Shown here in pieces: positions 3,342 to 31,300 of a DNA stretch of 64,000 nucleotides. The notes under the pieces were generated by a model. The model did not search any database and was not told where the DNA came from. It saw nothing but the letters and a program-made list of their open reading frames with translations. This DNA comes from a virus. The stretch lies in the IMG/VR virus record IMGVR_UViG_3300032093_000013; one strand, given 5' to 3'. Every line of letters starts with the position of its first letter. Within the stretch, counting starts at the first letter, position 1. The position numbers were made by a program, and so were the translations under genes.

Positions 3342-3814
3342 CGGTTATTTCTGTATTGAATAGCATCTTTCATACTATTATAATCGGAATTGCTTCCAGA
3401 AAGCAAGTTGTCATCAATCATCATAACCTCATCATAACCAGTGCGTTCGATGATCTTGGTTTTAATTTCCAGTTGCTTCTTCTCCTTCTGAATACGACGA
3501 AGAAATGCATAGTGAATAATTTGAGTAAAGTAGGCAAAAGGATTACTTGATTTTTGTGGATCAAAATTGTGAATATATTGAACGCAATTTTCTATGCCAT
3601 CAGAAATCATATCATCCCGAAACATATAATTCACAAAGTTAGGTTTATAAGAAAGATGCGTGGCAATCTTAAGAAAACACTCTCCCAAATAATTTGTAAT
3701 ACGTGGTTTTGGAAGTCCTTGCTCTTTAGCAGCAGCAACCTTTGTCCTATAAACAATCAATGCTTCAAGTAACTCTTTGTTATTTACATAATGTTCTGAT
3801 TTCTTTTTTGGCAT
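3338..3814 (-). CDS. gp55: late-transcription sigma factor
   Basis: HYVNNKE, NFVNYMFRDDMISDG, NPFAYFTQI motifs. Confidence 0.97.
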   Translation of the reverse strand: MPKKKSEHYVNNKELLEALIVYRTKVAAAKEQGLPKPRITNYLGECFLKIATHLSYKPNFVNYMFRDDMISDGIENCVQYIHNFDPQKSSNPFAYFTQIIHYAFLRRIQKEKKQLEIKTKIIERTGYDEVMMIDDNLLSGSNSDYNSMKDAIQYRNNR

Positions 3815-6884: not shown

Positions 6885-8279
6885 TCACATTAAGTTAGCA
6901 ACCTTAACTCTTCTGTAGTAGGTGTTTGCATTGGTGGTCAGAGCACCAGCGCCAGCGGTAAGACCCTCAGCGAATGGGTTTGCAACCATTCCGTAACGGG
7001 TCTTAAAGCCGATTTTAGGCTGGAAGGTGTTCTCGCCAACAGCACGTACCATCTGCAGAGGAACGTATGGGCAGTAGAAGAGACCAGCGTCATATGGGCT
7101 AGAACCCTTATAACCGACAACGTAGAACTGGTTAGCAGAAACGTTTGCCGAATATGGGTCAATGTAGACGCGATACTTACCTTGAAGAACTCCAGCAAAA
7201 GTATTGCCGGTGTCATCAACGTTGAGGTTTGCGTTGAGTGCAGGGGTGTAATCGAGGACACCTGCCATTGCAAGTGCTGAAGCAACGTCAGCAGAGCAAA
7301 GGATGGTGTTACCCTTTCCTCTACGAGTTTGCTGGGCGATTGCGTTTGCATCGCGCTCGATTTGGAAAATCAGACCCTTGAACTTCTCAACCGACCAACG
7401 ACCGTTGGAGTCAACGTCGAGGTCAAAAGTACCTGCGGTAGCGGTATTAACTTGAGCACCAGGCTTAGCAATCTTGTAGATGGTTCTGATAACTTCGCGG
7501 TTGATTTCAGCAAGAATCTCAGTTGAGAGAATGTTTGCTAATTCCGCTTCAGCATTCAGACCATGGATTGCCTTGAGGTCCTGAGCAAGCTCAAGTGAGT
7601 ACTCGGCTTTCAGAGCACGTGACTTTGCAGTAACAGTGACTTTCTCAATCGAGAATGCCATCTGGTTAAACTGGTCAGATTCGCCAAGCGATTCTGATTC
7701 GTCAGTTCTCATTCCTTGACCAACGTTATACTGGTTAGCGCCAGTAGCGTTGTTTGCTTGGTTGGTTGGGTCAAGTACTGATGGGTTGGTGCCGCCTTGA
7801 GCGGTAGTACCCATACCGACTGAACCACCGGTCCAACCGTTGGTGTTATTGAATCCGGAATCCTGACCAGAGAATGCTGAATCAACTTCGTTATAGAAGG
7901 TCTCGTTTCCAGCCTGGCTGGTGTAACGTGAGCGCATTGCGAAGATGAGTCCGGTAGGACCATTCATTGGTTGAACGCCACAGAGATCGTAGGCGATCAG
8001 GTTAGGCATTGAACGTCTGATTAGTGAAATCAGAACGGGGTCAAAACCTTGCATAGCACCGGTTGTTGCAGCACCCAGACCAGGATTTGCGCCTGAAGCA
8101 GTGCTGTTGGTTGGTGATTCGTAGAGAAACTCACGCTCTTCACGGAGTGCTCTTTCTTGGTTTTCTAACAGGATAGCGGTTACAGCTCTACGATGTGAAT
8201 CTTTGAAAGAATCAAGACCTTCGTAGTCAAGGAGCGGAGCCCACTTCTCCTGCAGTGATTCTAGGTTGAATCCTTGCAT
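6885..8279 (-). CDS. gp23: major capsid protein
   Basis: GVQPMNGPTGLIFAMR, KSRALKAEYS, YCPYVPLQM, GFKTRYG motifs. Confidence 0.99.
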   Translation of the reverse strand: MQGFNLESLQEKWAPLLDYEGLDSFKDSHRRAVTAILLENQERALREEREFLYESPTNSTASGANPGLGAATTGAMQGFDPVLISLIRRSMPNLIAYDLCGVQPMNGPTGLIFAMRSRYTSQAGNETFYNEVDSAFSGQDSGFNNTNGWTGGSVGMGTTAQGGTNPSVLDPTNQANNATGANQYNVGQGMRTDESESLGESDQFNQMAFSIEKVTVTAKSRALKAEYSLELAQDLKAIHGLNAEAELANILSTEILAEINREVIRTIYKIAKPGAQVNTATAGTFDLDVDSNGRWSVEKFKGLIFQIERDANAIAQQTRRGKGNTILCSADVASALAMAGVLDYTPALNANLNVDDTGNTFAGVLQGKYRVYIDPYSANVSANQFYVVGYKGSSPYDAGLFYCPYVPLQMVRAVGENTFQPKIGFKTRYGMVANPFAEGLTAGAGALTTNANTYYRRVKVANLM

Positions 8280-8328: not shown

Positions 8329-9483
8329 TCACTTTTTAGAAACTCTTTGGAGAGTCTGAAGATATGCACCCATTGTGCCACTAACCGATTGAATATTCAG
8401 ATTAGTTTCTTCCGACAGATTTTCACTAGCGTTTCTTTGAGTACCAGCGGTTCTGGTTGGGAAATAAGATTCCCTCAGAGTTACTAGTTTCTCACGATAG
8501 CTCTCTTCACCATCAAACTCAACATTTTCGGCAAGAGAAGCGAGTTTGTCCTTTTGAGAAAGTGCAAGACCCTCAGCGACTTCAGCAAAAATTACATCAG
8601 AAACTGACTCGGCTAATCTTTTATTTAGAGCAACATTTCTTTCAATTTGCTCGTTGAGTTTTTCTTCCATTTCATCAAGTTTATCTACCATGCTCTCGAT
8701 GACATCATATCTATCTTCAGGGATTGTTACATAATGATCTTCAAAAAGACCCTTCATTCCTTGGAGGAATGATTCGGTCATTTCGGTCTTAAGACCGTGC
8801 TCAACTGCGAGTGCATTTTCTTGAATCCACTCGTCAGCAACATACTCAAGGTATGCGTCAACACGCTCTACAAGACCTTCTTTAATTGATTGAATTTCTT
8901 CTACAAGAGTCTGCTCATATGCCTCTTCAAGTTGCTCTTTAATTTCAGCAACTTTTGATCTGATAGCAGATTCAAAAATGATACGTGCCTTTTCTTGGAA
9001 TTCTTCGGAGAGTTCTTCACCTTCAAGAAGAGCATTGACATCTTCTTCGATATCAAATTCTTCTTTCATTTCATCTTCATCATCTTCTTCACCAGGCTCT
9101 TCTTTGCCTTTTTTATGCTTACCCTCTTTATGCTTGCCACCCTCATCTTTTCCTTTTTCGGGTGCCTCATCCTCATCTTCTTCAGCAGCTTCGGAAACTA
9201 CTTCCTCTTCATCTTCTGCTTCCTCTTTGACTCCTTGCATAGGCATTGCTGCTTGTGCTTTCGCATTAACAACATCCTTTACTTGAGCAAGAGTTGCAGC
9301 AGGAGTCTTTAATTCTGCTGAACTATCATCGGGCTTGTAATTTTCTGGAGTAGGACCACCGAGATCTTCCCAACCAGCAGTTTGACCAGGAGTAGTCCCA
9401 GTCAGTTTGTGCATTGGCTCGGCAGGTGCAGCCCCTTTGGTTACTACGTTTTCCATTTCTTGTAAATTGCTACCAACGGACAT
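8329..9483 (-). CDS. gp22: prohead core scaffold protein
   Basis: Acidic, LSEEFQEKA..IFE, YLEYVADEW motifs; between gp21 and gp23. Confidence 0.93.
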   Translation of the reverse strand: MSVGSNLQEMENVVTKGAAPAEPMHKLTGTTPGQTAGWEDLGGPTPENYKPDDSSAELKTPAATLAQVKDVVNAKAQAAMPMQGVKEEAEDEEEVVSEAAEEDEDEAPEKGKDEGGKHKEGKHKKGKEEPGEEDDEDEMKEEFDIEEDVNALLEGEELSEEFQEKARIIFESAIRSKVAEIKEQLEEAYEQTLVEEIQSIKEGLVERVDAYLEYVADEWIQENALAVEHGLKTEMTESFLQGMKGLFEDHYVTIPEDRYDVIESMVDKLDEMEEKLNEQIERNVALNKRLAESVSDVIFAEVAEGLALSQKDKLASLAENVEFDGEESYREKLVTLRESYFPTRTAGTQRNASENLSEETNLNIQSVSGTMGAYLQTLQRVSKK

Positions 9484-9513: not shown

Positions 9514-9521
9514 TATTTATA
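9514..9521 (-). promoter_or_regulatory. T4 late promoter
   Basis: TATAAATA upstream of gp22. Confidence 0.85.
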
Positions 9522-9523
9522 AT

Positions 9524-10174
9524 TTACAGATTTGAAAGAAATTCGTTGAATAGATTCAACTTATGCTCTTCAAGTCTTTTTTGGTCAACAAGAGTGTTAA
9601 TTCTTCTTTGTGTTTGTTCGGCAAGTTTTTCACGAAGAATACCACCTTCCCAAATCCACTCTTTACCCTCCATAATTCCAGAAACAAAAGCATCTGGAGC
9701 AGAAGGATCTGCTACAATATCAGCAGCAGTTGCAAGCATAAAATCTTCACCAACAATTTTGTGACCCTCATTGGTCATTCTCAATGATCCAACTCCACGA
9801 GAAGAAACACCGAGACAAACTCCCTCACTAATGAGAGACTTTGCAATCTTACCCATAGGAGTTTCAAGAACCAATGCTTTTCCTTTAAAATTGTTTCCTT
9901 CGCGGGTAAGAGAAACAATTTTATGAGAAACGCGATCAAGATTTACAGTTGGTCCATCAGGGTGACCAAGTTCTCCGAGAGCACGACCCTTTTGAATAAA
10001 GTTTTCATTGTATCTGCCAACCTCTTTACTCAGAGTTGCCATCGGATACATTCTTCCATTACGATTGCAAATATCACCTTGAAGGAAAATACCCTCAATG
10101 TATAGATTTTTTTTATTACCTACTTTTTCGGTAATAAACTCTACTTTTTGAATTTCTTCTGTGATGAGTTTCAT
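9524..10174 (-). CDS. gp21: prohead protease
   Basis: NRNGRMYP, GELGHP, GVSSRGVGS, DIVADPSAPDA. Confidence 0.97.
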   Translation of the reverse strand: MKLITEEIQKVEFITEKVGNKKNLYIEGIFLQGDICNRNGRMYPMATLSKEVGRYNENFIQKGRALGELGHPDGPTVNLDRVSHKIVSLTREGNNFKGKALVLETPMGKIAKSLISEGVCLGVSSRGVGSLRMTNEGHKIVGEDFMLATAADIVADPSAPDAFVSGIMEGKEWIWEGGILREKLAEQTQRRINTLVDQKRLEEHKLNLFNEFLSNL

Positions 10175-10175
10175 T

Positions 10176-10703
10176 TTATTCGGAAACTAATTGTACTACT
10201 TCTGTGATGGTCACATTTGTGGTGTTATCAAGAGCAAGAGCTGAAACTCTTACGCTTCTGGATAAAGTAGATCCAGTTGCAGTAATTACTCCAACAATTG
10301 ATGATGTATTTGCAGCAATAGTAACTGTTGAATCAGTTGTAGCAGTTACTAATCTATGAACTGTATTAATTCCTACAGGTTGGGCGTTTTCAATTGTTAC
10401 ATAATCACCAACCAAGAAAGGATTCCCTGCATTATTATCAAAAGTAATTACAGTTGATGCTCCTGTAGTAATTCCTACTATCTGCTGCTTTGCAAGTCTT
10501 TCCTTTAAAACTTCATTTCCAAAAGGAGAAATCAAGAAAGAATTAACAGTAGCTACAGGTTCTCCCCCAGTTTCTACATATACTGCTGTTGAAGCACAAG
10601 CAACACGAATATATCCGCTTTTGAGTGCAATTGGATTGCTAGTAGCGGCTACAGAAACTGTAGGGGAAATTCTATTTACATTTTGGACAATTTTTATTGC
10701 CAT
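10176..10703 (-). CDS. hypothetical virion protein
   Basis: 175-aa beta-rich ORF in the head operon. Confidence 0.75.
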   Translation of the reverse strand: MAIKIVQNVNRISPTVSVAATSNPIALKSGYIRVACASTAVYVETGGEPVATVNSFLISPFGNEVLKERLAKQQIVGITTGASTVITFDNNAGNPFLVGDYVTIENAQPVGINTVHRLVTATTDSTVTIAANTSSIVGVITATGSTLSRSVRVSALALDNTTNVTITEVVQLVSE

Positions 10704-10894: not shown

Positions 10895-10902
10895 TATTTA
10901 TA
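10895..10902 (-). promoter_or_regulatory. T4 late promoter
   Basis: TATAAATA. Confidence 0.85.
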
Positions 10903-15451: not shown

Positions 15452-15459
15452 TATTTATA
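15452..15459 (-). promoter_or_regulatory. T4 late promoter
   Basis: TATAAATA upstream of gp18. Confidence 0.85.
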
Positions 15460-15477: not shown

Positions 15478-17172
15478 TCACCTATAATCCCACATATAAG
15501 ATCTGTCCCCATATTCATCCACATTCCAAATTTCCATAGACTCCATAGAATTATTATTTGCCGCAACTAACCATCTATCGCCTGTTTCTTTTTCTACAAA
15601 AATATCCATATCTTCTAATCCATCCGAAATAAACCCAAATGGGGACATATCTTGCTCAATTTGATTTTTTTGCTCTTCATAAATTCTTTTGCGAACGTCG
15701 TTGTCCGTCATTTCTTTGAAGTAGTCTTGAGCGACTAACCAAGAAAAAATAACCAAACACATCGCTAGGTCGTCATTACATCCCTCTTCAGCTTCAAATG
15801 AATTATGTTTCTGTGCAAATGTTGTGAGCTCAGATATGATTTCATAATCAACTGTAAGTAACTTGTCATCTTCTAATAATGTTTTTAAGTTAGAGCACCC
15901 AAGTTTTTTAACGGCAGCAGTCATTCTCACACCAAGTTGTGATTTTTTACCACTAAATCCTGATCCAACAATTTGACCGGCACGACCACGCATTGCACAC
16001 ATCAAAACATTATCATATTCTAGGTCAAAATGAAGAATACTCGCTACTTGGTCCCCAATATCATTAACTTCAATCAATAACCAAGCATCATTATAACCTT
16101 TTGCTACTTCGTAAATGATACTTGGAAAAAGCATAGGTTTAATTTCATTATTCCTATATTTTGCAACAACTTTATATGGAAACTCTGTAATGTCAAAGAC
16201 AATAAAAGCTGAGTAGTCGTTGCCAAGACCACGGGCAACGTCTACCGTAATCAAATAATTATTTTCTTCCTTTGGGTGTTGGTAAACATCTAATCCAGCA
16301 TTTCTTTTGATCGGATCTTCATATACAAAATTTCTCAACTTGGAGGGGTTAATCAGTGTATTGACTGATCCTAAGAATTCGCACTCAAACTCAACTTTGA
16401 ATTGTTGTTCTGAAGTGTTGGCAATTGTTTGTTCTTTCCAAACCTGATCTCTGCCGGGTACTTCTGACCAATGGACATCTGTAGGTACATATTCGTTTTT
16501 GCCACGTTCAGAGTCGTGCCACATACGGTAGAAGTGATTCATACCGCGTGGCGTTGATACAATAATTACCTTCGTGCTCTGTCCAGAAGAAATAGTAGGA
16601 TAAACAGAGGCAAAGAAGTCATCAGCAATGTGATTCGGGATGAAAGCGAACTCGTCAAGAAAGATGACATTATAGGATCCGCCTCGGACAGCAGATGAAG
16701 AAGTAGAGTTAGATGAAATCTTGGAGCCATTTTCTAATTCTAGACTACCTTTATTCCAGGATATAATACCCTGTTGCATCCACTTAGGCAAATTTTCATA
16801 AGCAAGTTGTAATCTTCCAAGTAGGTCTCTCGCAGTGGATGCTTTGTTTGCCAGAATAGCTATATTGACATTATCGTTGAATACGGCATAATGTAACAGA
16901 TATGAAACACAAGTTGTAGATTTACCTGTCTGACGGGGCATCTTACAAATATTAAATCTGTTTTCGTGGAAGTTTCTTACAAGTTTCTCTTGAAATGGAT
17001 ACATCTCAAAAGGAACAAGACCGTGATCCAGAGAAACGATTTTAATATAATTTTTTGCAAAATATACAGGATCTTCTTTACACTTTAAGAACTCAATAAT
17101 TTGTTCTTCTGTAAACTCAATTTGTGTATTTGCCTTCTTAAGGTTTGGGTTCCCCAAATAGACTTCACTCAT
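15478..17172 (-). CDS. gp17: terminase large subunit
   Basis: YLGNPNLK, PRQTGKST Walker A, FLDEFAF, DDLAMC nuclease motif. Confidence 0.99.
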   Translation of the reverse strand: MSEVYLGNPNLKKANTQIEFTEEQIIEFLKCKEDPVYFAKNYIKIVSLDHGLVPFEMYPFQEKLVRNFHENRFNICKMPRQTGKSTTCVSYLLHYAVFNDNVNIAILANKASTARDLLGRLQLAYENLPKWMQQGIISWNKGSLELENGSKISSNSTSSSAVRGGSYNVIFLDEFAFIPNHIADDFFASVYPTISSGQSTKVIIVSTPRGMNHFYRMWHDSERGKNEYVPTDVHWSEVPGRDQVWKEQTIANTSEQQFKVEFECEFLGSVNTLINPSKLRNFVYEDPIKRNAGLDVYQHPKEENNYLITVDVARGLGNDYSAFIVFDITEFPYKVVAKYRNNEIKPMLFPSIIYEVAKGYNDAWLLIEVNDIGDQVASILHFDLEYDNVLMCAMRGRAGQIVGSGFSGKKSQLGVRMTAAVKKLGCSNLKTLLEDDKLLTVDYEIISELTTFAQKHNSFEAEEGCNDDLAMCLVIFSWLVAQDYFKEMTDNDVRKRIYEEQKNQIEQDMSPFGFISDGLEDMDIFVEKETGDRWLVAANNNSMESMEIWNVDEYGDRSYMWDYR

Positions 17173-17178
17173 AATAAT

Positions 17179-18453
17179 TTACCTCTGTTCAATCCAGTTC
17201 AATACTGCAAGTGCTTTTTTGTTAGTATTAGGACTTGCACAAACAAGTGTATAAGTATCACTAATTGTTCCAATGCCACTTCTACCTAACTGAAGTGCTG
17301 CTTTAATATCAAGATCAACTAACGCACCACTACCATTAATTACAAAACCCTGCAAAAGAGGATTTCCACCAGATACTGCAGTTTGAGTGATATTATACTG
17401 CATAAAAGAGTTTGGATCTGGATGATTTACCCAAGTTCCTCCAGTCAGTGTTGCATTCTCAACAAGTTCCCAATAGATATTTGTATTATCATCAGTTGCT
17501 GCCTGTAATGATCTCAAAAGCATCACCGCACCTAAATTACTAGACTTTAGACGAAGACTTATAATTGGATAGAATGTGTTTGCGGATGGCATCGTTGTCC
17601 CTGTGATGGGATTTGATATGCTCAAAAGAGTTCCAAGTTTCTCTGGTTCTCCTTCCTGAATAAGAGAATTAGAACCTTGATAGATGTAATGAGTTCCTGC
17701 AATACCAGTTACATTTTCTATCTCAATTCTAATAGGCAAGAAAGGAGTGGAACACCAAACTCCTGGATTGGTATTTGAATTATCAAAAGTATGAGATGCA
17801 ACAGTCTCATTCTTCATTAACCAAGCAAATTGAATTATACCTGCACCATACCATTCATAATTGATGGAAATCATTTGTTGTTTTGTTGGGTCTGCAGTTA
17901 CTCCAGTCCACCCATTACCATCAAACTTTTCACCATTCCATTCATCTCTGAATACTCTGGTTTCTGTAACAATTCCAGTTACACTACTGCGAATTACATA
18001 AGAATATGTTCCGCCATTATCCTCAAAGAAAACACCATTATTGTCATCAAACAATCCAAATCTTCTGCGAATACCTACCTGTGGTGTATCAAGACGAATT
18101 GCAAATGCAAGAGTTGCACCTCTACCAGGAATGTATCTCATCACATTCTTGGTTTGACGAATTACTTTACTTCCTGCAGTAGATCCAACTTGCATAACAA
18201 CATTACTGGCATTTACATTAAATGTTGCAGTTCCAACTCCAACGATTCTCTCATCCCAAACATCAGTCTCTTTACCATACTGAAAGGTGTTAAAGAATAC
18301 TGTTTGGAACGGAGCAACTTTTAATCTGTTGTTATTGGAAAACTGAGGTCTCCAATCTGTCTGATTACCCCAGTGATCTGCAATATTAAAAACTTCAAAA
18401 AGTGTCCTTTCCTGATTTAGAAAGTCCTGCGTACTCTTATTCCACTGTGCCAT
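17179..18453 (-). CDS. hypothetical beta-rich (probable virion) protein, 424 aa
   Basis: Long ORF in the late operon between gp16 and gp17. Confidence 0.75.
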   Translation of the reverse strand: MAQWNKSTQDFLNQERTLFEVFNIADHWGNQTDWRPQFSNNNRLKVAPFQTVFFNTFQYGKETDVWDERIVGVGTATFNVNASNVVMQVGSTAGSKVIRQTKNVMRYIPGRGATLAFAIRLDTPQVGIRRRFGLFDDNNGVFFEDNGGTYSYVIRSSVTGIVTETRVFRDEWNGEKFDGNGWTGVTADPTKQQMISINYEWYGAGIIQFAWLMKNETVASHTFDNSNTNPGVWCSTPFLPIRIEIENVTGIAGTHYIYQGSNSLIQEGEPEKLGTLLSISNPITGTTMPSANTFYPIISLRLKSSNLGAVMLLRSLQAATDDNTNIYWELVENATLTGGTWVNHPDPNSFMQYNITQTAVSGGNPLLQGFVINGSGALVDLDIKAALQLGRSGIGTISDTYTLVCASPNTNKKALAVLNWIEQR

Positions 18454-18456
18454 AAA

Positions 18457-18765
18457 TCAATCACTCCAAGATAATCTTTCTGGTCTATATCGTTGTGCGT
18501 CTTTAATTTTTAAAGAATTTGATGTTGCTGGGTAAATATTATGAACTATTGCTCCGGGATATTCTCCCTGAAGTTGTTCAGCAAGTTCATTTTTATCTAT
18601 CATTTTACCTTCAACTTCCATACGATAAAGTCTTCCTTGCCAAACTACGTCAGCAAGAAAAGATTCATTTGCCGCCTCTGGTTGAGATGCATTCATGTAA
18701 AGATTTCCATTGAAATCTCCGGCAATGTTGATGCTCTCTGAAATAAACTGTTGAAATGATTTCAT
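18457..18765 (-). CDS. putative internal head protein with capsid-targeting sequence
   Basis: N-terminus MKSFQQFISE resembles the T4 internal-protein CTS MKTYQEFIAE. Confidence 0.7.
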   Translation of the reverse strand: MKSFQQFISESINIAGDFNGNLYMNASQPEAANESFLADVVWQGRLYRMEVEGKMIDKNELAEQLQGEYPGAIVHNIYPATSNSLKIKDAQRYRPERLSWSD

Positions 18766-18766
18766 T

Positions 18767-20506
18767 TTAATTACAGTTCCAACGACGAAGGGCTTTGTTA
18801 ATTCTTGAATCTGGGTCTCTTGCTGTTTCTGCTGATGTATTCTTTGCTTTGTGACCTTTCATCCTACTACAAAAGTTTTTACGACGACCTGCTCTTTTAC
18901 CTGTTGGATTCTTTTCAGTTACCGCAGTTTGGAGTTTTGATCCAGGATTCTCACGACGATAAGCATCTACTGCTTTTTGACTTAAACCATCAGTCTTATC
19001 TTTACGATTTACTGATTGCCAGTCTTCCATAAATTGAGAGAATGACTTGAGATGATACTCATCCGCAAGAGGGAGTTTTGGACCTTGCAACTTTCTTTCT
19101 GCTGCTGCTTTTTCACCAGAATTAGTATTTCCTGTGGCAAGATTTCTAATTTTTGCCATTTTTTGTGCTTGTCTATGACCTGCACCAATTTCAAAACTAA
19201 TCTGTTCTTTTTGCATCTCACCACTATCTACATAATCTGCTGCAGCATCAAGATAATCTGCCGCTTTAGTAATTTTTGATTGAACCCACGCTTCAATATT
19301 ACCTTCACCTTTCATTTTCTTACGAAGTCTTTTTGCAGCAGAAATAATTGTGGAAATTTCTGAGCGAGCCATTGAATACTCATGATCATATGACTCTGGA
19401 AAATTTCCAGGATGCACAGTAGCAATGCTATATTTCTTTTGATTTGGAGAGAGGGGTTCGGGTATGGAAAACATATCCCAATATTTTGGACCATATTTAC
19501 ATTCCGCTCTCGTTTCTGTTTTTTCACATTTGGGGCAGTATCTTCTCATTTCCATTTCCTCATTTGCCTTTACACAATTATTGTATGTTTTTCCAAACAT
19601 TTTCTTTGTGCCCTTCTTTTTATACCCAGGCCAACACTTTTGACCTTCATCAATAACAGTCTCTTCAGACTTTGTGCCCCAACTTGCAGCACCTACTTTG
19701 CGACATTTAACCAGTGCTCCAGATGCATATGCACTTGGCCAAACGTCATATCTCGACTTTACTTTATGGTAGCAGGCATCTTTTTTTCCACTACCCTTTC
19801 CTTTAATGTCTCTTTGAGCTTCGTTGATTTCCATCGTTTCGTTAAGTCCTGGTTCTGGTTTAATGTAATTTGGATCTTTTTTACCTTTGGCAAAAGTTTT
19901 AACCAACGTTGGCTTTGCACTACCACTTTTTGCCTGTTGCCCCGGATCTTCCTGTCTTTTTCTACGCACTGCTGCTTTAATAATTGCTTCTCCCTTTTTT
20001 CCTTTTGCTCTGAGAGAAGAGAGTCTTGCACTACTAAAACACTTTGGAGTTTTGGTTTCTCCGGGATCATTGGCACATGGAGAACCGTCTGCTTGCACCC
20101 AACCAGGTTTTCCTTCTTTTGATTTTGATCCCTTAAACCACTGGTGCAATGACCCACTTCGCTCTTCAGTAACATCCTTAAATTTTTTGTGTTCTTTTTT
20201 GGCGGATGCTTCCATTTTCTTGAGTCGAGTATAATAATCAGGAATTTCGTCTAGATGTTGAAGAGCAATTTCTTTAGCAAGAGTATGATTTTTAGTATGC
20301 TCATGCTCAATAGGTTCACCCATATCCAATTGCTTTTGGATGAAAGAAACCTCCATACGATGCTTCTTCGCAATTTGCTCAACAGTCTTAAATGGTTTCA
20401 ATTGCTCTTTCAATTTCTTTTTACGACCTTGACAATGAGCTCTTTGTGAAAACCCCTTTGGATTGTCGCAGTCAATAGATTTTTTATATTTATCTGACCA
20501 ACCCAT
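18767..20506 (-). CDS. modular Lys-rich putative internal head polyprotein, 579 aa
   Basis: About 9 short basic/Cys-paired modules separated by hydrophobic-x-Glu sites; internal LKSFSQFME. Confidence 0.7.
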   Translation of the reverse strand: MGWSDKYKKSIDCDNPKGFSQRAHCQGRKKKLKEQLKPFKTVEQIAKKHRMEVSFIQKQLDMGEPIEHEHTKNHTLAKEIALQHLDEIPDYYTRLKKMEASAKKEHKKFKDVTEERSGSLHQWFKGSKSKEGKPGWVQADGSPCANDPGETKTPKCFSSARLSSLRAKGKKGEAIIKAAVRRKRQEDPGQQAKSGSAKPTLVKTFAKGKKDPNYIKPEPGLNETMEINEAQRDIKGKGSGKKDACYHKVKSRYDVWPSAYASGALVKCRKVGAASWGTKSEETVIDEGQKCWPGYKKKGTKKMFGKTYNNCVKANEEMEMRRYCPKCEKTETRAECKYGPKYWDMFSIPEPLSPNQKKYSIATVHPGNFPESYDHEYSMARSEISTIISAAKRLRKKMKGEGNIEAWVQSKITKAADYLDAAADYVDSGEMQKEQISFEIGAGHRQAQKMAKIRNLATGNTNSGEKAAAERKLQGPKLPLADEYHLKSFSQFMEDWQSVNRKDKTDGLSQKAVDAYRRENPGSKLQTAVTEKNPTGKRAGRRKNFCSRMKGHKAKNTSAETARDPDSRINKALRRWNCN

Positions 20507-20519
20507 TAGGATAGTAAAA

Positions 20520-20942
20520 TTATTCCTTATTATTTAGAAAACCTTGCTTGAGTAATTTTGATAATTCGGATGTTGACCCAACAAAAACTGCATTATTTGT
20601 CACATTATTAGTTGTCTTTACAGATTCATCTTCAACATCTTTGAGTTTTTTCTGCAAATCTATAAGTTTATCTGTCACATCTCCAACACTTTTAATTAAC
20701 TGTCCAGCAACTTCGTACGCTCTTGGACTTCCACCTTCTCCTGCAAGCTCCATTATCCCATTAATTGCTTCTTGCCCCTTTTCAATTAAGGAGTATAGAT
20801 TTGCTCTGGTGTATTCATAATCTTTTTGAATATCATCCACTTTTAAAGGAGATATCTTTAAATCATCTTTTACCTTTTCTACTTCAACAATATTACTTTC
20901 AATATTAAGAGCAGAATCTAAACTGTCAAATGTATTACTCAT
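20520..20942 (-). CDS. gp16: terminase small subunit
   Basis: DYEYTRANL, PRAYEVAGQLIK, FVGSTSEL motifs. Confidence 0.93.
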   Translation of the reverse strand: MSNTFDSLDSALNIESNIVEVEKVKDDLKISPLKVDDIQKDYEYTRANLYSLIEKGQEAINGIMELAGEGGSPRAYEVAGQLIKSVGDVTDKLIDLQKKLKDVEDESVKTTNNVTNNAVFVGSTSELSKLLKQGFLNNKE

Positions 20943-20948
20943 ACTAGG

Positions 20949-21746
20949 TTAAATATCCCTTTGTTGTGTTGGACTATAAGTTTTAGAGTCCTCAAAACTT
21001 TGCCAAGTTTCATTAAACCCAAAGTCATCATCTGGATTTGCATCAATAGGATCTGGAGTAAGTGTATATCTCATCTCTCTCTTTGCTATTGCAGTATCTG
21101 TTGAATTATAGTAATCAACCTGAACCTTACGAATAAGACCATCTGTAGAATCTGCAATAGGACCAAACAGATATGTTTTTACTGTAAAGTTAAAGGTATA
21201 AATTAATATTCTTCTTGTTGAAAAGTCTCCTTCATAATCATCAGTAAATGATACATTATCCAAAACGATGGGAATATCTCTTTTTTCTCCAATAGAATCA
21301 ATCAAATCTACTGTTAGATTGAATGATGGTTGAAAATAAGGTAGTATTTGTTCAACTACTTGCAGGGCATCATCCTGCAATTTTGTCATTACATTTAATT
21401 GAAATCCAATGTTATATGGAACTGGTAAATAAACTTTTTTTAAATTTGTCCCATCAGATGCTTTAAATGTTTGAGTAATATTTGCTTTCCTAGTCGCATC
21501 ATATTGAATAGATGTCATCTCAAATGCCATTCTGGGTAATGTAATGGCAATTGGTTTATTTAATTCTGGTTGCTGTTGGATTCTGGCAAGAAATTTTTGA
21601 ATTGGACCATATGCCAAAGCAACCTTCATTTCACTTATACTATCACCAGTGGAATCTTTGTGCCTTATGTAAATATCATTGAAAACTGTTCCAAATGCAA
21701 TGACAGTTCTTCTGATAATTTCATGATAGTAATATGTTCCAAGCAT
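20949..21746 (-). CDS. gp15: tail sheath stabiliser/completion protein
   Basis: YYHEIIRRTVIAFGTVF, TLPRMAFE, QILPYFQP. Confidence 0.95.
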   Translation of the reverse strand: MLGTYYYHEIIRRTVIAFGTVFNDIYIRHKDSTGDSISEMKVALAYGPIQKFLARIQQQPELNKPIAITLPRMAFEMTSIQYDATRKANITQTFKASDGTNLKKVYLPVPYNIGFQLNVMTKLQDDALQVVEQILPYFQPSFNLTVDLIDSIGEKRDIPIVLDNVSFTDDYEGDFSTRRILIYTFNFTVKTYLFGPIADSTDGLIRKVQVDYYNSTDTAIAKREMRYTLTPDPIDANPDDDFGFNETWQSFEDSKTYSPTQQRDI

Positions 21747-23137
21747 TAGAATGTACCAAATGGATTTGATTCTGAAAAATCTACGATGCCTTCGGCTGCG
21801 TTTTCAATTTCTACATTTTCACTATATTTATCATATTGGTCCCATGTATCATATGATTGGACAGAATAAATTGCACTTGACGCAGATCCAACAAGAATTT
21901 CTCCTGGATAAAATTCTTTTGTTGCAGCATTATCTACAAAAGACACCTTAAGAACTCTTGTATCAAGATCCCACGATTTGACTCTACCACGAGTTCCAGA
22001 TATGGATCCAAATATTTCCTCATTGAAAATATAATTACCAATTCCGGAAAGAACTGGTGGGGGTGCAATTGTTACGGTTGGTGCAACTGTATAACCAGCA
22101 CCAGGGTTTGCTATTCTCAAAGATGCTACCGTTTGTCCGGTACCTACAATTGCAGTTGCTACAGCAGTCTCTCCGGCACCTGTTGGTCCACTTATTGTTA
22201 CTGTTGGTGAAACAATATACCCAGATCCAAAATTAACCATTGTTAATGTGGAAATGCCGCTCTGGGTGGTTTCGATTGAGCATGTAGCTGCAGCACCAAC
22301 GCCACCACCGCCCGAAATCACAATAGATGGTGCAACTGTATATCCTGCTCCCGCTGAGATTAAAACAATAGATTCTACAGATTTAACTCCACCTCTACTT
22401 GTGGTAATTGCCACTGCCCTTGCAGTTATTCCCCCAACCGGTGCTGATGTAAATTCAACCGTAGGTGTAGAAGTATAACCATATCCGTCATTATTCAAAA
22501 AGACTTTACGAATATATCCAGTTGCTAGTGTAGCACTAGCAACGGCTGTAGATCCTGCTCCAATAAGTTGTAAAGTAGTAATATACCCTTCATCTTTAAT
22601 TTGACTATCAATTTCTTCAATGGTAGTATCAATAATTTCATCCTCATATTCAAACAACTCACACTTTAATTCATACATGTAAAGTTTTCCTAGTTGGTAA
22701 AAATTAACCTCATGCTCAACAAATTTAACTTCGAATAATCTTTGCCCTAAAGGAAAATAAACCAAATCACCTTCCCTTGGTCTAGATGCAAGAACAATTT
22801 CATCATCATCAGACGCTTCTAAAAAGGGCGCTATGAAATCTTCAAATCTTTCTTTTGAAATTACTAAACTTAATTCATCTTTCAAATTTACACCAAATTT
22901 TGAAAGAATATCTCCTTGACCACTATATCCATCATAATTATTAATATATGCTTCAATCGCATAATTATCATCAAATTTTGATGATTGAATTTCCCTAATT
23001 ATGGTTTGCTTTCTGACAAATTTTCTAGGAATGTAGATTACATCTACTCCATAAATTTTTAACTGTTCATTAATTAAATCTTGTACAAGCCTTTGTTCTC
23101 CTGCAGAACCTTGTAAAAAGAAAGGATTAAGTGCCAT
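21746..23137 (-). CDS. gp14: neck protein with Gly/Thr-rich repeat insertion
   Basis: NPFF, RPREGDLVYFP, FSESNPFG. Confidence 0.93.
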   Translation of the reverse strand: MALNPFFLQGSAGEQRLVQDLINEQLKIYGVDVIYIPRKFVRKQTIIREIQSSKFDDNYAIEAYINNYDGYSGQGDILSKFGVNLKDELSLVISKERFEDFIAPFLEASDDDEIVLASRPREGDLVYFPLGQRLFEVKFVEHEVNFYQLGKLYMYELKCELFEYEDEIIDTTIEEIDSQIKDEGYITTLQLIGAGSTAVASATLATGYIRKVFLNNDGYGYTSTPTVEFTSAPVGGITARAVAITTSRGGVKSVESIVLISAGAGYTVAPSIVISGGGGVGAAATCSIETTQSGISTLTMVNFGSGYIVSPTVTISGPTGAGETAVATAIVGTGQTVASLRIANPGAGYTVAPTVTIAPPPVLSGIGNYIFNEEIFGSISGTRGRVKSWDLDTRVLKVSFVDNAATKEFYPGEILVGSASSAIYSVQSYDTWDQYDKYSENVEIENAAEGIVDFSESNPFGTF

Positions 23138-23982: not shown

Positions 23983-24623
23983 TAGTAAGTACCCCCATCT
24001 ATTGCATTTGACCAAGTAGGAATATTGCTATTATCCGTTGTCATTATATAGTTTGTATAATCTATTCCATTCTGTGGACTATTTGTAGAAACCATTAGTC
24101 CACTGGAATTGAAATATGGCATTCCGTTGGTATAATATGGTCCATAATATAATCCACCAGATACTGTGGCAATTCCAGATATAATCGCGTTTCTGGCAGT
24201 AAATTCATCAAACTTTAGGTCATCACTTACATATAAGTCGCCATCAACATATACATCACTTTTAAATGTTGTCAGACCTACAAATGTAGAAACCCCCGTT
24301 ACATTTAAGTTATTGACGGTGGCAATACCAGTTACATTTAAATTGAATAATGTAGTAATTCCAGTTACTCTACCATTTCTAGCGGTAAATTCGTCAAATA
24401 TTAAATCATCACCAACTCTTAAGTCTCCATCAATAAAGACATCATTTTTAAAAGTACTTACGCCAACAAAAGTAGATATGCCACTTACATGAAGTTCTCT
24501 TATAGAACCAATGCCACCAATTACATTTTCTGCAGTTACGGCTCTACCACCAGCTGATCCGGAAATGCTAGAAATTACTTTTACGGCATTTTGTTGTCCA
24601 ACTCTAACTTTGATATCGGACAT
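23982..24623 (-). CDS. fibre-like virion protein with internal duplication
   Basis: Two copies of G.STFVG..TFK.DV..DGDL.V.DDL.FDEFTARN; C-terminal IDGGTY. Confidence 0.75.
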   Translation of the reverse strand: MSDIKVRVGQQNAVKVISSISGSAGGRAVTAENVIGGIGSIRELHVSGISTFVGVSTFKNDVFIDGDLRVGDDLIFDEFTARNGRVTGITTLFNLNVTGIATVNNLNVTGVSTFVGLTTFKSDVYVDGDLYVSDDLKFDEFTARNAIISGIATVSGGLYYGPYYTNGMPYFNSSGLMVSTNSPQNGIDYTNYIMTTDNSNIPTWSNAIDGGTY

Positions 24624-24967
24624 TAGCGAGTAACTCCTTCTGTTACGATAACCATTCCTTCAATTACTCTATTCTTGACTCCAAATTCATCCGTAATTAC
24701 AACATCATAAATGTATCTTCCTGCCTTTAAATTAGTAGTTTGTGCCGAAGTTAAACGCAGTAAAATTTGACCGATTGTTGGAGGAGATTCAATACTTGCG
24801 GTAAAGGATGTTGAAGTAGTGCTCCCAGCCCATTTTCTCATTTGAGCCGCTACGGTATATCCGGTCAAGTCAAAAGCAGAATTTGTATCGGATCCTTCTA
24901 AAGTAAATGATTGACTGAAATCGGCTCCAGAATTTACGACTAGATTATTTACATATACTGCAGCCAT
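24623..24967 (-). CDS. hypothetical virion structural protein
   Basis: DLTGYTVAAQMRK, AGRYIYDV, RVIEG motifs common in cyanophage structural ORFs. Confidence 0.75.
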   Translation of the reverse strand: MAAVYVNNLVVNSGADFSQSFTLEGSDTNSAFDLTGYTVAAQMRKWAGSTTSTSFTASIESPPTIGQILLRLTSAQTTNLKAGRYIYDVVITDEFGVKNRVIEGMVIVTEGVTR

Positions 24968-24990: not shown

Positions 24991-24998
24991 TATTTATA
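24991..24998 (-). promoter_or_regulatory. T4 late promoter
   Basis: TATAAATA overlapping the stop of the NblA-like ORF. Confidence 0.8.
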
Positions 24999-25170: not shown

Positions 25171-25360
25171 TAATGATCTCCTTTAGTAATGACTTAATTT
25201 CATCAATATCTTCCTTAATTTTATTCAATTCATTTTTTTGCGATTCTCTATTGTTTAAACTATTTACATATTGATTATATGCATTACTATCACAATTTAG
25301 AATTGCTCCAGAATTTTCATCACGATATAGATTTGGGTGACCTTTCACTGGTATCATCAT
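25157..25360 (-). CDS. conserved cyanophage hypothetical protein
   Basis: VKGHPNLYRDENSGAILN motif plus C-terminal coiled coil. Confidence 0.8.
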   Translation of the reverse strand: MMIPVKGHPNLYRDENSGAILNCDSNAYNQYVNSLNNRESQKNELNKIKEDIDEIKSLLKEIINGSK

Positions 25361-28300
25361 CTGATTGCAATACCTCTCAAATCTTTAAATCTTGGTGGAT
25401 ATGCTTGATTTGTAGATGACATTACAATTTTAATTGTGAATCCATTAAATTGGTCAAGATTATTTGCAGAAAATTCATATTCTAAGAATTGATTCTGATT
25501 GCTTGCTGGTACAAAAATGTCTGGTAATCCGCTATTATTTGCTGGGTCTACGACATCTGGATATCCATCATTATTGTTGTCTATTGTTAGATTATCATAT
25601 CCTGGGAATAATTCAAATGATTGTTCGACTTCACTAGAATCTGCCCTCAATAAACTATAAAGAACTCTAAAATCTGCAGAAAAATGTCTATATGCAGAAA
25701 GAATAACCTTAAGCGAAGTCGCTGGTTGAGATAACCTTACTGTATTTGAAATGTATATTGCAGCATGTGGGTCATCAAGGATAGAATTGACTCTACCATC
25801 TTGTTGATAATTGCTTATTGGAGAATTGATTCTATTGCTATGAAAATCAGTAAATGATGTATCTAAAAATATTTGCGGAGAAACATATTTATTACTAGTG
25901 CGTAGTGTAATTGCTGTTGTAAATGATTTGTTTCTAGGTAAAGAAGTTAAGAAAGTATCTTCGTTTACTTTTGATGCAACTATTCTAGACGAGGAAAGGG
26001 TATTCAATGAATTTATCTGAATATCTTCGTACCCTAAATCTTGGAAAGAAACTTCATTTCCGCTAACACTAGTGCCACTAACTGACCTAATTTTTGCCAA
26101 TACAGAAGTTTCTGCTCCTGGAGTTCCAATATCATAAAATGGAATAATTGCATCATATTGTATATTTTCTGATGCAAAAACCTTAGACCCCCCAGAAGTC
26201 AGTTCTGAAGAGAATGACAATTGTGGATATCCTGTTGGTGTATTGTCGCTATTTCTATTTACTCCATTAGAAGTTCTATCAATTTCAATGTAATAACTAT
26301 CAATATCTAATCCAGTATCACTAATATCATGTGTTGTATTAATTCTTCTGAGTGATACACCATTGAATTCATACTTATATACAGGAGTATTCGTGGAGTG
26401 TGGAATAGAAAGTGTTGAAGACTGTCCCCTAGTTACAGTTTCTAGAGTGCCGGACCCAATACTCTCATATTTAATAATTTCATTTTCAATAATAGCATAT
26501 CCAGGATTTGTGCCGTTAACGGTTTTTCCTTCAAATGTTACAAAGTTTGCGGTGCTTGCTATAGAAATTGATGTTGAAGATGCTGTTATCGACTGAGAAA
26601 GCGTAGTAGATTCGGTATTTGGAGTGACTCCACTAATCGAAACTTTATTATTGGTAGCATACATTCCATGATTAAAATGGTTTAATTTGGCAAAATTTCC
26701 ACTGTAAATGGAACCAACTGGCGTGGAGCTTCTAACAAATGTTGCTGCCAGAGAAACTGAATTATTAGATGTATCAAAGTAAACCAGACTTGCAGTGCCA
26801 TCTGAAGTAAACGATTCTCCTTGGACGTTACTTAGATAAAGAGTGTCGATACCGTTGTTGTTTCCAGTAATTGTAATTCTGGCATCTCTACCACTATTAC
26901 TTGAAACCGATGAGGTTACAATTCCGACAACATCACCAATTGCATATCCATTTCCGGCACTCACGATTGATGCCGCAGTAATTGCTCCAGATGAAGCAGT
27001 TATGTTTAGTGTGAGACCAGAACCATTTCCAATAATATTGTATGTTGAAACATTTGTATCAGACACATAATTTGACCCTGCAGTGGTAACACCAACAGAA
27101 GAAGCTGAGCATCCAGTGCCAACAATATAACCATAGTTATATGTCTTGGTGCTTTCGCCAACTTTTCTTCCAGTGGTTAAAATTCCCACCATGGTAGAAT
27201 TTGTAGTTGTCGTAATACCAATATTCAGTTTTCTGGGAAGAACTGCAAGTGGATTGTTTTGTAAGTTTGAGATATATCCATTACTTTCATTAAGTGTAGG
27301 ATTATAAAAATATGCAGTAGATGCTGTGTTGGTAACAAAATTTGCTCTATGAAGAGTAAATTTCATATCTTGATATTGGTCTGCAGTCCAAATGGATCCA
27401 TTTTGGGACTTAAACAGACTTCCCATGGCAAACTGTTGCGTATATACAACTGCCTCAGAATCTGGAAGATTTCTTGATTGAATTGTTTTCTTGCCCATTT
27501 CGGCAATGAAGACTTCATATTCAATACTTTCTGGAGCTAGCAATACGATTGCATATTCTAAACCAGGTGCCAAATAAATTGGATAATCAAATATTGCTTT
27601 TGTTACTGCTGTTGCATCGTCTGAAATTTGAATTTGATCTGGTCTTAGAGTAACTGGATTTCCAACTACTGTTGTTGTAGGTGTACCTAACTCAACAGTC
27701 CTTACTTCTACTGTAAGAGGGTTATTTCCACTATCTTTTTTGTAGAAATACAAGTCCACTTCGGTTAAAAATCCACCATCTTGGTCAACTGTAAAAGTTT
27801 GGGCAAGTGGGTCTTTTCCTCCACCTCTATCTTGTTGAGGAAACTGAGTTTGTTCAAAATTTGTTGTTACTCTTGTTATATTTGTAGTAGTTAAACGGGT
27901 ATTTGTTACTGTTGTTGTATTTGTAATTGTTGTCTCATATAATTCTAGAGTTCCGTCTGAGATGTAATTTGTTTCAGCAGATGAAACTGTAGTACTTCCC
28001 GCAACAGCAACTTCATTTGTGGGGCTAGATGTAATTTTATATGTTTTATTTCCGGTATTAATTTTTACATCTGGTGCTGGATTAGTATTAGGATCTCTAA
28101 TAAAGAAAGATCCTATCAAATCGCCATAATTATCAGATATCAATCTAAGGTCCTTTACATATGCTATAGCACCACTTGTTTGCCCAACAAGTTTAGCACC
28201 TTTTACCAAATATCCAGAATAAAGACCTTGTGCCTCCTCTGATATAGAATATGTGTCAAGGTTTAAAATCTTCGATGATGCACTATATGCATCTGGAATT

Positions 28301-31300
28301 GACTCTGTTCTAAAATATGGATTTGTTGTAAATTTGGTCGTTGGAGAATTGAAAGGACCAATTTTATGAGATGGCATTGCCACTCTAAAAGCAATTATCT
28401 TATTGTTTTGATTATCGTAACCGATTACCGTTTCTCCAATCGTAAATGCAGATGATGCTCCATAATTTTCTAATGATTCACTGTTAGCAATTTCAATTAG
28501 TTTAGGAATAAAATCTACAGATCCATTTCCATCTAAGAATTGATAATATCTAGTATAAGGTTTCAGACTAGTAATTGAAAATTCAGTATTTCTAGATCTC
28601 ATATACTCTTCTGCACGCGCTTCTACTAATCTTGTAGAGCTAGTGCTTCTAGTAGATGAACTGCTAGATTCAGTTACAGTTTGAGAGAATTCTGTTGAAA
28701 GTTCAGTTCTACTTGCATTAGCACCATTATCAACCCTAACTGTCCTGTCACCCAAAACAGTATTGTCTCTTTCAACTAAAACAAAGTCGGTTACTGATAT
28801 TGTTTTATTTGGTAATTGTACAGTTCTAACCCAATTATCTCTATCTGGAGATAATTTAATAGATCCTTTATATGAAATTACGTGAAATGGATTAACATTT
28901 TCTACCTGTGTTGCAAGTGGTTGATTAATCCACTTTTCGGAAGTATATTTGAGAGTTACAGTGCTTCCTGTCTTTTGTACATTAGAATCTATCAGAGCAT
29001 AATTAGTTGATAAATCTACTTCTTCATCGGTTATATTCAGTGACGGTGCAAGATAATTTTTAAGACTATTGCGAGCAATAATCGGTCTCATTTCTTGCAG
29101 TTCTGGGTCAATCTCAAGAAGTGAAAGATTTAAATTAACTCTTTCGTAGTCTTTAAAATCATCTACAAAAAATCCAGTTTTAAATCTATTAAATCCCTGA
29201 GAATCTTGTATTTGAAGAGTTTGTGTACTTAATTCTAAAAGCGTTAACGAAGTTACTCTCTCTAGATTTTTAACTCTGTTTTCAATGAGACCAATGTCTC
29301 TCATCGTATATCTTCTGTTATCAACAAGTGATAATGTTGCACTATTCGGAGTATAAAGGTAAGGTGGCAAACTAATGGTCGCTATCTCCATTACATCATC
29401 AATTTTAATCGGAGATTTTGGATTTGAAGATGAATTTCCTTGAATATAAATAAACTCACCATTTTTGTTGAGATAAATTTTATCTATTCTTCCAATATAA
29501 TAATCATATCCAATAATCGTGCTCTCATTTGGTGTTAGATTTAGTTTAATAGAAGAACTAAAGTTTCTATTTGAAAAATCGAATGGAGAAGACGCTACTC
29601 CAGAGAATACTGAAACTCTTGGTCTAAAATCGAGTGTATCTGATGCTCTTAGATTTTTATTGCCGATTAGAGGCACATCATTAGCAAACTGCTCTTGTTT
29701 GTAACTTAATACTGTAAATACATCTCCATTATCTGTAGATGGAACACTGAAGTAATCAAAAACGACTAAAATCCTTCTAGAAGGTTCTGTCTCACCCTCA
29801 TTTTTAACAATTCTAGAATAATCATAGTATTGTTCTTTTTGCCCCTTGTCCAATTTGAATCTATTTGTGATATCGTTATAACTTCCCAGAGTAATAAAAT
29901 CAATTTCTCCACTAATATTCGATTCTTCGAAAGTAACATTTTCATTAGTTAAGAATCTATTTGAATTTAAATAGATTATACCGACGCTATTTGTGGATCT
30001 TGTAACCACTCTAGCTACACAACCACTTTCCGATCCTATAATGTTTTCACCAATAATAGCATTTCCTCCAATGTTCAAAACACTGCTGAAGGATACACTA
30101 TCCAAAGAGGGGTTGGAAGTATTTAAAGATTCATAAACTGCTAAAACTTTCGCAACATCTGGATAATTAAGAGAAATTTCTTGGTCCTGTACTCTCAGAC
30201 CGTAATATGGATTATATTCTAGACCATCATTAATAGAAGTGCTGATTCCACTCCCAGACTCTAGATATTTTGAATAAATTACATTAATTGTTTGACTTCT
30301 ATTATACTGCTTTTCTTTACTTTCTACTCCATTTTTAATAAAAGTTGCATTGATTGACGATGTTGTTTTACCTGATGTGAGATTTGATAAAGTAACCTGA
30401 TTATTAGATAATGAAAATTCGTCTGCTGTTAAAGATTGTGTTGTACCATCGGTATAATGAACTGAGTAACGCTCTTCGTCAAATCCTTGAAATAAAGCAG
30501 TCGTTAAACCGGATGGTAATGAGAAATCGGATACTGATAAAACGATGGGGCTGCTTGATGATTTGGCGCTCGTCGATTGAGCACTAAAGGTTAAGATGGA
30601 ATCGTTTAAATCTATAGATGATAAATTTGAATTTGGAACTTCCGCATACAAGAATCCTTTTTCAAGATTATTAATTGTTGGAGCTCCAATACTGAAAGAT
30701 ACATTTGTGGAGACACCAATAGATCCATCACAAACTCCACTAACACTTGCAACACTTGCAACTGTCATGGAAGATCCTGTTAAACTAACGCTAGTAACTC
30801 TGTTAAAGTTTTCTAAAGACCCTGTTGATGTTTGATATCTAATGATACTTCCGGGTTTGATTGAATTGAAAAATTTTCCTGGAGAAGTTACAACACCACC
30901 AGAAGTAATATTGATTGTATCGGAGGCATTAAAACCGATTGGTAACTGTTTTGATAAAACCGAATCTCCTATAAATGAAGTAGTAAACCCAGAAACTGCG
31001 GTAGATTGGTATACTTGTTTAATATCCTGACTGTCATATACTGTAATATTAGTAATCGATCTAGGATATAATTCTAGTCCATTGATGATAATTTGTTCGC
31101 CCTTTATAAAATTACCAGAAGTTTGTCTTAAACTGACAGTTGTTGTCCCATCTCCAGCAGAAACTGCATATCCACTTGCGCCACTACTTTTTCCTTTGAT
31201 GAATGATGTTGCTGGTAATTGAGATATAGATAGAGCTTGGTTTAAAATTAATGTTGTATATGTTTGAATATCATAAAGATATAAGTCCCAGTTTGTAGAT

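Follow-up and report, generated by a model that had tools for sequence, protein, structure and literature searches.

From a 64,000-nucleotide stretch of viral DNA (IMG/VR record IMGVR_UViG_3300032093_000013; henceforth the window, meaning the whole stretch), which is part of a freshwater T4-like cyanomyovirus, we describe a 579-amino acid (aa) protein encoded between the genes of the small (TerS) and large (TerL) terminase subunits. Judging by sequence comparison, it is probably a precursor packaged in the phage head, which the prohead protease would cut into about eight lysine-rich mini-proteins. The protein belongs to T4-GC119, a family that is known so far just as a hypothetical structural protein, and in the simplest account cyanomyoviruses would employ the T4 way of loading heads, with cargo led by a capsid-targeting sequence (CTS) and trimmed by the protease, while this family would be a fusion of several such cargo modules, whose junctions keep the protease site.

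Modules and junctions of the 579-aa protein

The preliminary description of this DNA had placed a 579-aa open reading frame (ORF) between the terminase genes. We confirmed it there, with two further genes (a 102-aa ORF and a 424-aa virion protein) sharing the interval. The protein is strongly basic (120 Lys and Arg against 73 Asp and Glu; 15% Lys, 21% Lys plus Arg, isoelectric point (pI) 9.7, about 65 kDa) and has 13 cysteines, arranged as five pairs (13/25, 144/156, 245/268, 291/311 and 546/578) and one triplet (324/327/336), which bears out the early impression of mostly Lys/Arg-rich modules with a Cys pair. In alignments of 28 and 105 relatives, conservation of these cysteines is complete or no lower than 90%.

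The family is large. There were at least 8000 metagenome relatives of near-equal length, 11,629 matches at E≤1e-3 among 50%-identity representatives, and 493 phage records with homologs, nearly all of them Synechococcus or Prochlorococcus myoviruses. With tblastn, SSM2_109 of phage S-SM2 is 64% identical over 61% of the query, and its record carries the note 'T4-LIKE GC: 119'; the 579-aa family is therefore the T4-GC119 of Sullivan et al. 2010. Membership follows from the homology to SSM2_109 and its relatives, the position in the g16–g17 slot and the flanking TerS and TerL.

Database searches provided few labels. Pfam recognized DUF5661 (aa 43–99, E=3.7e-13, 50.1 bits against a gathering cut-off of 27) and DUF6321 (aa 502–576, E=1.8e-12, 48.1 bits against a cut-off of 28.5) and nothing beyond these two. 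Several function-unknown PHROGs families match, each only part of the protein. A sequence search of the PDB returned no match at E up to 5, PADLOC and NCBIfam had none either, and ESM Atlas returned solely unnamed, DUF5872 or DUF6321 viral clusters. The AlphaFold2 model of the whole protein was poor (mean predicted local distance difference test (pLDDT) score 49.9, predicted template modelling score 0.22). A VIA-align comparison with about 48,000 PDB chains, which does not address the folds of small modules, gave none at Z≥5, the best being generic helices (Z 4.6).

The alignments of relatives display near-invariant blocks, which include the Cys pairs, with indel-rich stretches between them. 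Eight modules could be delimited, five with one conserved Cys pair each and one with three Cys. The modular build proposed initially was thus upheld, though with eight modules and not about nine, and the boundary suggested at MQKE was discarded, as it lies in a variable stretch with no conserved hydrophobic residue at P3. Modules are present, absent or relocated from homolog to homolog, so that their content and order differ freely, as a shuffleable set would predict; a simple motif parse of 150 diverse representatives returned dozens of distinct module orders. For example, the CWxGY..NC module follows module 4 in this phage and stands just before the last module in other relatives, retaining an IDE/LDE/FQE leader when relocated, and some relatives have an extra helical module inserted. 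Gene fusion is evident, since modules occur both stand-alone and fused. The candidate polyproteins of marine phages (S-SM2 SSM2_109, Bellamy gene 123) carry added modules, including a DUF192-like block of about 110 aa and an N-terminal block linked by ESM Atlas to DUF5872.

The junctions between modules carry a hydrophobic-x-Glu motif. All seven ten-residue zones preceding module cores in the 579-aa protein hold [LIVMFA]xE (LKE34, VTE114, INE229, IDE287, ANE316, FPE371 and FME494), a result equalled by none of 20,000 composition-preserving shuffles, although the zones were set after inspection of the alignments and this makes the shuffle p-value optimistic. In homologs, too, the module boundaries mostly coincide with the motif, as had been anticipated: among the 150 representatives, [LIVMF]xE was found at a fixed offset before the cores of modules 1 (94%), 4 (96%), 5 (96%) and 8 (89%), and less often before modules 3 (79%), 6 (63%) and 7 (51%), with 52, 84 and 112 occurrences counted for modules 3, 4 and 5, respectively. 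Control zones inside modules reached 0–25% and the random expectation was 20%.

Where module 1 is internal in relatives, hydrophobic-x-E stands two residues ahead of its Trp in 16 of 17 cases. Two junctions are defined best, and there every sequence has Glu at P1 (17/17 and 62/62), with V/M/I at P3 in 16/17 and L/I/V/F/M in 52/62, respectively. Positions P2, P4 and P5 are free there, and the wider context upstream of junctions is wholly variable (poly-Gly, Lys-rich or other modules). The same junction pattern appeared in 65 fused forms from IMG/VR. All seven sites lie at pLDDT <50, as does 54% of the protein, and higher values were predicted for the module 2 core (66–79) and module 6 (76–79). 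Cuts at these sites would yield eight pieces of 29–123 aa with pI 8.0–10.6.

Capsid-targeting leaders, prohead protease and virion proteomes

T4 head proteins bear N-terminal propeptides of 10–20 residues, termed CTS (PMC5694885). For IPIII, the first 10 residues suffice for targeting, positions 4 and 7 being important for targeting and positions 8 and 10 for processing (PMC9026906). In the T4 record, IPIII and IPII start with MKTYQEFIAE|A, IPI with MKTFKEF.. and gp61.1 with MKTFKEFIKE. The 579-aa protein has a similar peptide, LKSFSQFME (aa 486–494), ahead of its last module. The preliminary description had singled it out, and it does mark a true boundary: the last module exists elsewhere as a gene of 94–95 aa, and in 47 of 50 stand-alone module 8 proteins (≤100 aa, 86–93% identical) a 10-residue CTS leader (e.g. 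MINLKEFLNE, MKTLKDFITE or MKTLKQFIAE) directly precedes DWQ, its end corresponding exactly to the E494|D495 boundary (LKSFSQFME|DWQ). An internal translation start at this peptide was ruled out, codon 486 being CTC. Similarly, gene 122 of phage Bellamy (51 aa) consists of MKSFKQFQE joined directly to module 1, and internal CTS-like peptides are enriched in multi-module relatives (18 vs 3.5 expected).

Leaders of this type are not confined to relatives of the 579-aa protein. Over the whole record of phage S-SRM01, M-K-x-x-x-[QE]-F had 11 forward matches against one in the control, and about nine true ORF starts there read MK[ST]F.[QE]F(x)xE, at the head of ORFs of 53–447 aa. Each of the phages S-SM2, Bellamy and S-SCSM1 has two or three CTS-type ORF starts, among them that of a conserved protein of about 410 aa (MKSFFQFLSE..). 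This suggests that cargo genes with a CTS leader form an entire set in cyanomyoviruses. Just downstream of the 579-aa ORF in the window, the leader of the 102-aa ORF, MKSFQQFISE, is a near copy of the T4 CTS. Its first 21 residues are 52% identical over 21 aa to T4 gp61.1 (MKTFKEFIKEDMVAGDSGGN), and its homologs in S-SRM01 and S-SCSM1 retain the leader.

A gp21-type protease had been presumed as the processing enzyme, and the window does encode one, with a Peptidase_S77 domain (Pfam PF03420, 130.9 bits) and 47% identity to T4 gp21. Both catalytic residues, His in GELxHP and Ser in GVSSRG, are retained. The motif [LIV]xE is enriched about twofold in the scaffold gp22 (25 vs 13.1 expected) and in gp21 itself (11 vs 5.0), in keeping with a T4-like processing of both the scaffold and the protease itself. 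An alignment of the gp23 propeptide with that of T4 gp23 was ambiguous (FLYE|S may match T4 FLTE|A) and we did not rely on it. Prohead proteases of the T4 family cleave C-terminal to Glu (PMC5694885).

Members of T4-GC119 have been detected in virions twice. The family is listed as 'Structural protein' with 13 peptide counts in S-SM1 virions and is absent from S-PM2 (PMC3037559, Table S8). In S-SCSM1, the homolog ORF29 is labelled 'virion protein', labels that follow mass spectrometry of CsCl-purified particles (PMC9602691, GenBank); the S-SCSM1 supplement was searched for a peptide-level table able to show fragments and none was found.

Weighing of explanations and proposed mechanism

Several observations weigh against a processed head precursor. 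For every member of the family, cleavage and a location inside the head are our inference, and this extends to the capsid targeting, ejection and function of the 579-aa protein. Counted over the whole ORF the motif is not above chance ([LI]xE 6 vs 3.6 expected, p=0.15; [LIV]xE 8 vs 5.0 expected, not significant), so that the Glu-ending separators proposed at first stood as to their placement and not as to their number. Instead of marking a cut site, the Glu at P1 could simply be conserved as part of each domain. The protein starts with MGWSDKYKK, which is no CTS, and an N-terminal CTS was found in just one of the 150 representatives. The CTS-like peptide is internal, from where it may or may not target, and most close relatives have EYSNWRxDFGLSE in its place. 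Furthermore, DUF6321 occurs leaderless and stand-alone in T7-like podoviruses without this type of protease, and the module is therefore not dependent on processing. The S-SCSM1 homolog of the 102-aa CTS gene has no virion-protein label. Lastly, presence in virions, which had been expected, held for the homologs in S-SM1 and S-SCSM1 but not for the one in Syn9, gp114, which is annotated but was undetected in virions (PMC3037559, Table S8). Short tryptic peptides, with 21% Lys plus Arg, may explain such patchy detection.

The leaderless DUF6321 proteins are very basic and 82–84 aa long, as in P-SCSP1i (locus 3459–3713) and pelagiphage HTVC028P (locus 3450–3698). The P-SCSP1i gene is located between those of the major capsid protein and the tail tubular protein gp11; the cryo-electron microscopy paper on P-SCSP1u does not mention the DUF6321 gene product.

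Much of the above would also suit an unprocessed multi-domain basic virion protein of about 65 kDa, residing e.g. on the DNA, neck or tail, in which the junction motifs and the CTS-like peptide were relics of fusion or residues of linkers and domain caps. Fusion is indeed visible from the stand-alone and fused forms, the missing N-terminal CTS and the unenriched raw motif count would need no explanation, and detection in virions is silent on whether the protein was whole or in pieces. Relics should decay, yet among representatives at ≤50% identity the P1 Glu is kept in 100% and P3 stays hydrophobic while the rest varies; such strict retention amid free variation argues against mere relics, without proving cutting. 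The sites also fall in predicted disordered linkers and the phage encodes a protease of the matching type. We regard this, the main rival explanation, as possible, though on the unlikely side.

A different possibility is that the protein acts inside the cell as a late protein, e.g. a DNA-binding or packaging accessory, and that its detection in virions reflects carry-over of a sticky, very basic protein. The location of the gene between TerS and TerL, the strong positive charge and the Syn9 virions without a detected homolog would agree with this. However, homologs were found in two independent CsCl-purified virion proteomes, the g16–g17 interval is known to be hypervariable and to house tail-fibre and virion genes as well, and the stand-alone modules with a CTS leader speak for the head, which together make an intracellular role improbable. 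Least credible of all is that the protein gives rise to secreted or antimicrobial peptides, cationic and Cys-paired (defensin-like, or akin to ribosomally synthesized and post-translationally modified peptides), which would be freed outside the cell at lysis: small cationic modules with Cys pairs recall such peptides, but there is no signal peptide, leader-core organization or neighbouring maturase, the surroundings are wholly virion and packaging genes, and the family matches give no support.

In the favoured reading, that of a head-packaged polyprotein, the ORF would be expressed late, and its Lys-rich product, a precursor made up of about eight small modules that fold independently, would enter the prohead, perhaps helped by the internal CTS-like peptide or by contacts with the scaffold core. 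The gp21-type serine protease would then cut after Glu in the disordered junctions near E34, E114, E229, E287, E316, E371 and E494, and the released basic mini-proteins (29–123 aa, pI 8–10.6) would remain with the packaged DNA. There they would more likely serve as lysine counter-ions or organizers of packed DNA; a second role would be as small cargo leaving with the DNA, which could act on the host. Both roles are suggested by composition and analogy. A bolder version places them in an arms race: capsids would be loaded with a combinatorial set of disulfide- or metal-stabilized mini-proteins, delivered as CTS-led genes or as one cut polyprotein, and the shuffled modules would be injected inhibitors of host defences, a speculation we consider rather unlikely. 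T4 IPI, for its part, inhibits GmrSD.

Known systems and genome setting

The closest parallel is with the T4 internal proteins IPI, IPII and IPIII, which share with the family their basic nature, a leader of 9–10 residues, M-K-[ST]-[FLY]-x-x-F-x-x-E, ending in hydrophobic-x-Glu, and a gp21-type protease. The leader is N-terminal in the T4 proteins and on stand-alone modules 1 and 8, whereas it is internal in the 579-aa protein. Unlike the T4 proteins, the latter is an eight-module chain with conserved Cys pairs and no N-terminal leader, and its cleavage and ejection are predicted. BLASTP of IPI, IPII and IPIII against it gave no significant match, hence no similarity of the mature parts. T4 heads contain about 1000 internal protein molecules, of which only the lysines contact DNA phosphates (PMC3012670). 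T4 gp22, gp67 and gp68 are comparable in another way, each being one precursor that gp21 cuts at several hydrophobic-x-Glu sites in the prohead, giving small peptides. These are acidic or scaffold proteins, however, and their pieces mostly exit the head, whereas the pieces of the 579-aa protein would be folded, basic, conserved and likely retained.

Polyvalent proteins of phages and conjugative elements (Iyer et al. 2017, PMC5512222) likewise combine many shuffled domains per chain, have their genes among late or virion ones and are predicted to accompany the DNA, and the family resembles them in having many domains in freely varying architectures. They differ in that the modules described here are much smaller (29–123 aa) and would rely on a separate prohead protease, not on a built-in peptidase. 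None of the catalogued polyvalent domains (ART, MPTase, ParB-like, PBECR, ArdC-N and others) was detected in the 579-aa protein by Pfam, PADLOC or NCBIfam. Finally, in the giant phages phiKZ, 201phi2-1 and SPN3US, too, a prohead protease related to that of T4 cleaves proteins inside the head, the inner-body and ejection proteins, after Glu (PMC5694885). The P3 residue of their motif is small (A/S/G-x-E), and typically a single long propeptide is removed; the junctions described here have L/I/V/M/F at P3, and we propose many cuts in one chain. The junctions do not show the small P3 of the giant phages, with one site of the 579-aa protein, ANE316, having it.

The study of Sullivan et al. 2010 (PMC3037559) covered the same family and the same g16–g17 slot, reporting just its presence in S-SM1 virions and making no mention of modules, of motifs at junctions or of leaders of the CTS type. 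In the open full-text literature, nothing tied CTS, internal proteins or polyprotein processing to cyanophages, except a review on T4 with a passing mention of cyanophages. The new element would be the arrangement of T4-type internal proteins and gp21 processing as a shuffled polyprotein. T4-like cyanophages are among the most abundant viruses of lakes and oceans, and the family comprises thousands of variants, already seen in virions and annotated only as hypothetical. If our reading is true, the way in which the dominant myoviruses of aquatic habitats fill their heads with small proteins would be explained by one widespread family, the CTS and gp21-processing system of T4 would reach far beyond T-even coliphages, cargo could be delivered as a polyprotein, and the modules would form a catalogue of mini-domains that could be screened for DNA condensation or anti-defence activity.

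Within the window, the genes around the 579-aa ORF are all on the minus strand and in T4 order (Table 1).

Table 1. Modules of the 579-aa protein and late genes around it in the window.
Feature	Position	Strand	Remark
gp15 sheath stabilizer	20949-21746	-	
TerS	20520-20942	-	
579-aa multi-module ORF, T4-GC119 family, candidate head-cargo polyprotein	18767-20506	-	
Module 1 (WSxKYK..C..C), aa 1-34	20405-20506	-	proposed cut after LKE34
Module 2 (Pfam DUF5661, helical), aa 35-114	20165-20404	-	proposed cut after VTE114
Module 3 (LHxWF..GKPGWV..C..PKC, then basic tail), aa 115-229	19820-20164	-	proposed cut INE229 or LNE223
Module 4 (KDACY..WPSAYASGALVKC), aa 230-287	19646-19819	-	proposed cut after IDE287
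Module 5 (CWPGY..NC beta-hairpin), aa 288-316	19559-19645	-	proposed cut after ANE316
Module 6 (RYCPKC..EC, three Cys), aa 317-371	19394-19558	-	proposed cut after FPE371
Module 7 (helical DHEYSM..DSGEM domain, then variable linker), aa 372-485	19052-19393	-	
Internal T4-CTS-like LKSFSQFME, aa 486-494	19025-19051	-	proposed cut after E494
Module 8 (Pfam DUF6321, very basic, pI 10.6, Cys546/Cys578), aa 495-579	18770-19024	-	
102-aa ORF (phrog_1742), starts MKSFQQFISE (T4-type CTS), candidate separate head cargo	18457-18765	-	
424-aa virion structural protein	17179-18453	-	
TerL	15478-17172	-	
Sheath gp18, tube gp19, portal gp20	next in order after TerL	-	
175-aa DUF7243 ORF (phrog_682)	10176-10703	-	between portal and prohead protease
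gp21-type prohead protease (Peptidase_S77), presumed processing enzyme	9524-10174	-	
gp22 scaffold, presumed substrate of gp21-type protease	8329-9483	-	Pfam T4_CASP
gp23 capsid protein	6885-8279	-	

No late promoter of its own could be assigned to the 579-aa ORF: directly upstream there is no TATAAATA box, the nearest on the same strand being at 24991-24998, and the gene is therefore probably co-transcribed with the upstream late genes. Boxes resembling T4 late promoters were found on the coding (minus) strand at 9514-9521, 10895-10902, 15452-15459 and 24991-24998, just upstream of gp22, the DUF7243 ORF, gp18 and an ORF at 24623-24967, respectively; over the whole window, such boxes are no more frequent than by chance (6 vs 6.25). 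The DUF7243 ORF occupies the slot of the T4 prohead core genes 67 and 68, and its C-terminus reads ..LVSE.

Among isolates, S-SRM01, a Synechococcus phage from freshwater, comes closest (nucleotide identity about 85%, with 62% of a 7-kb query covered). Compared over positions 18700-21800 of the window, the two are collinear apart from two genes present in S-SRM01 alone: one, for a homing endonuclease, precedes gp15, and the other, for endonuclease VII, separates the candidate polyprotein from the 102-aa ORF. Elsewhere in the late region, the window contains a single ORF of 2431 aa (25357-32652, minus strand), presumably a baseplate or fibre protein.

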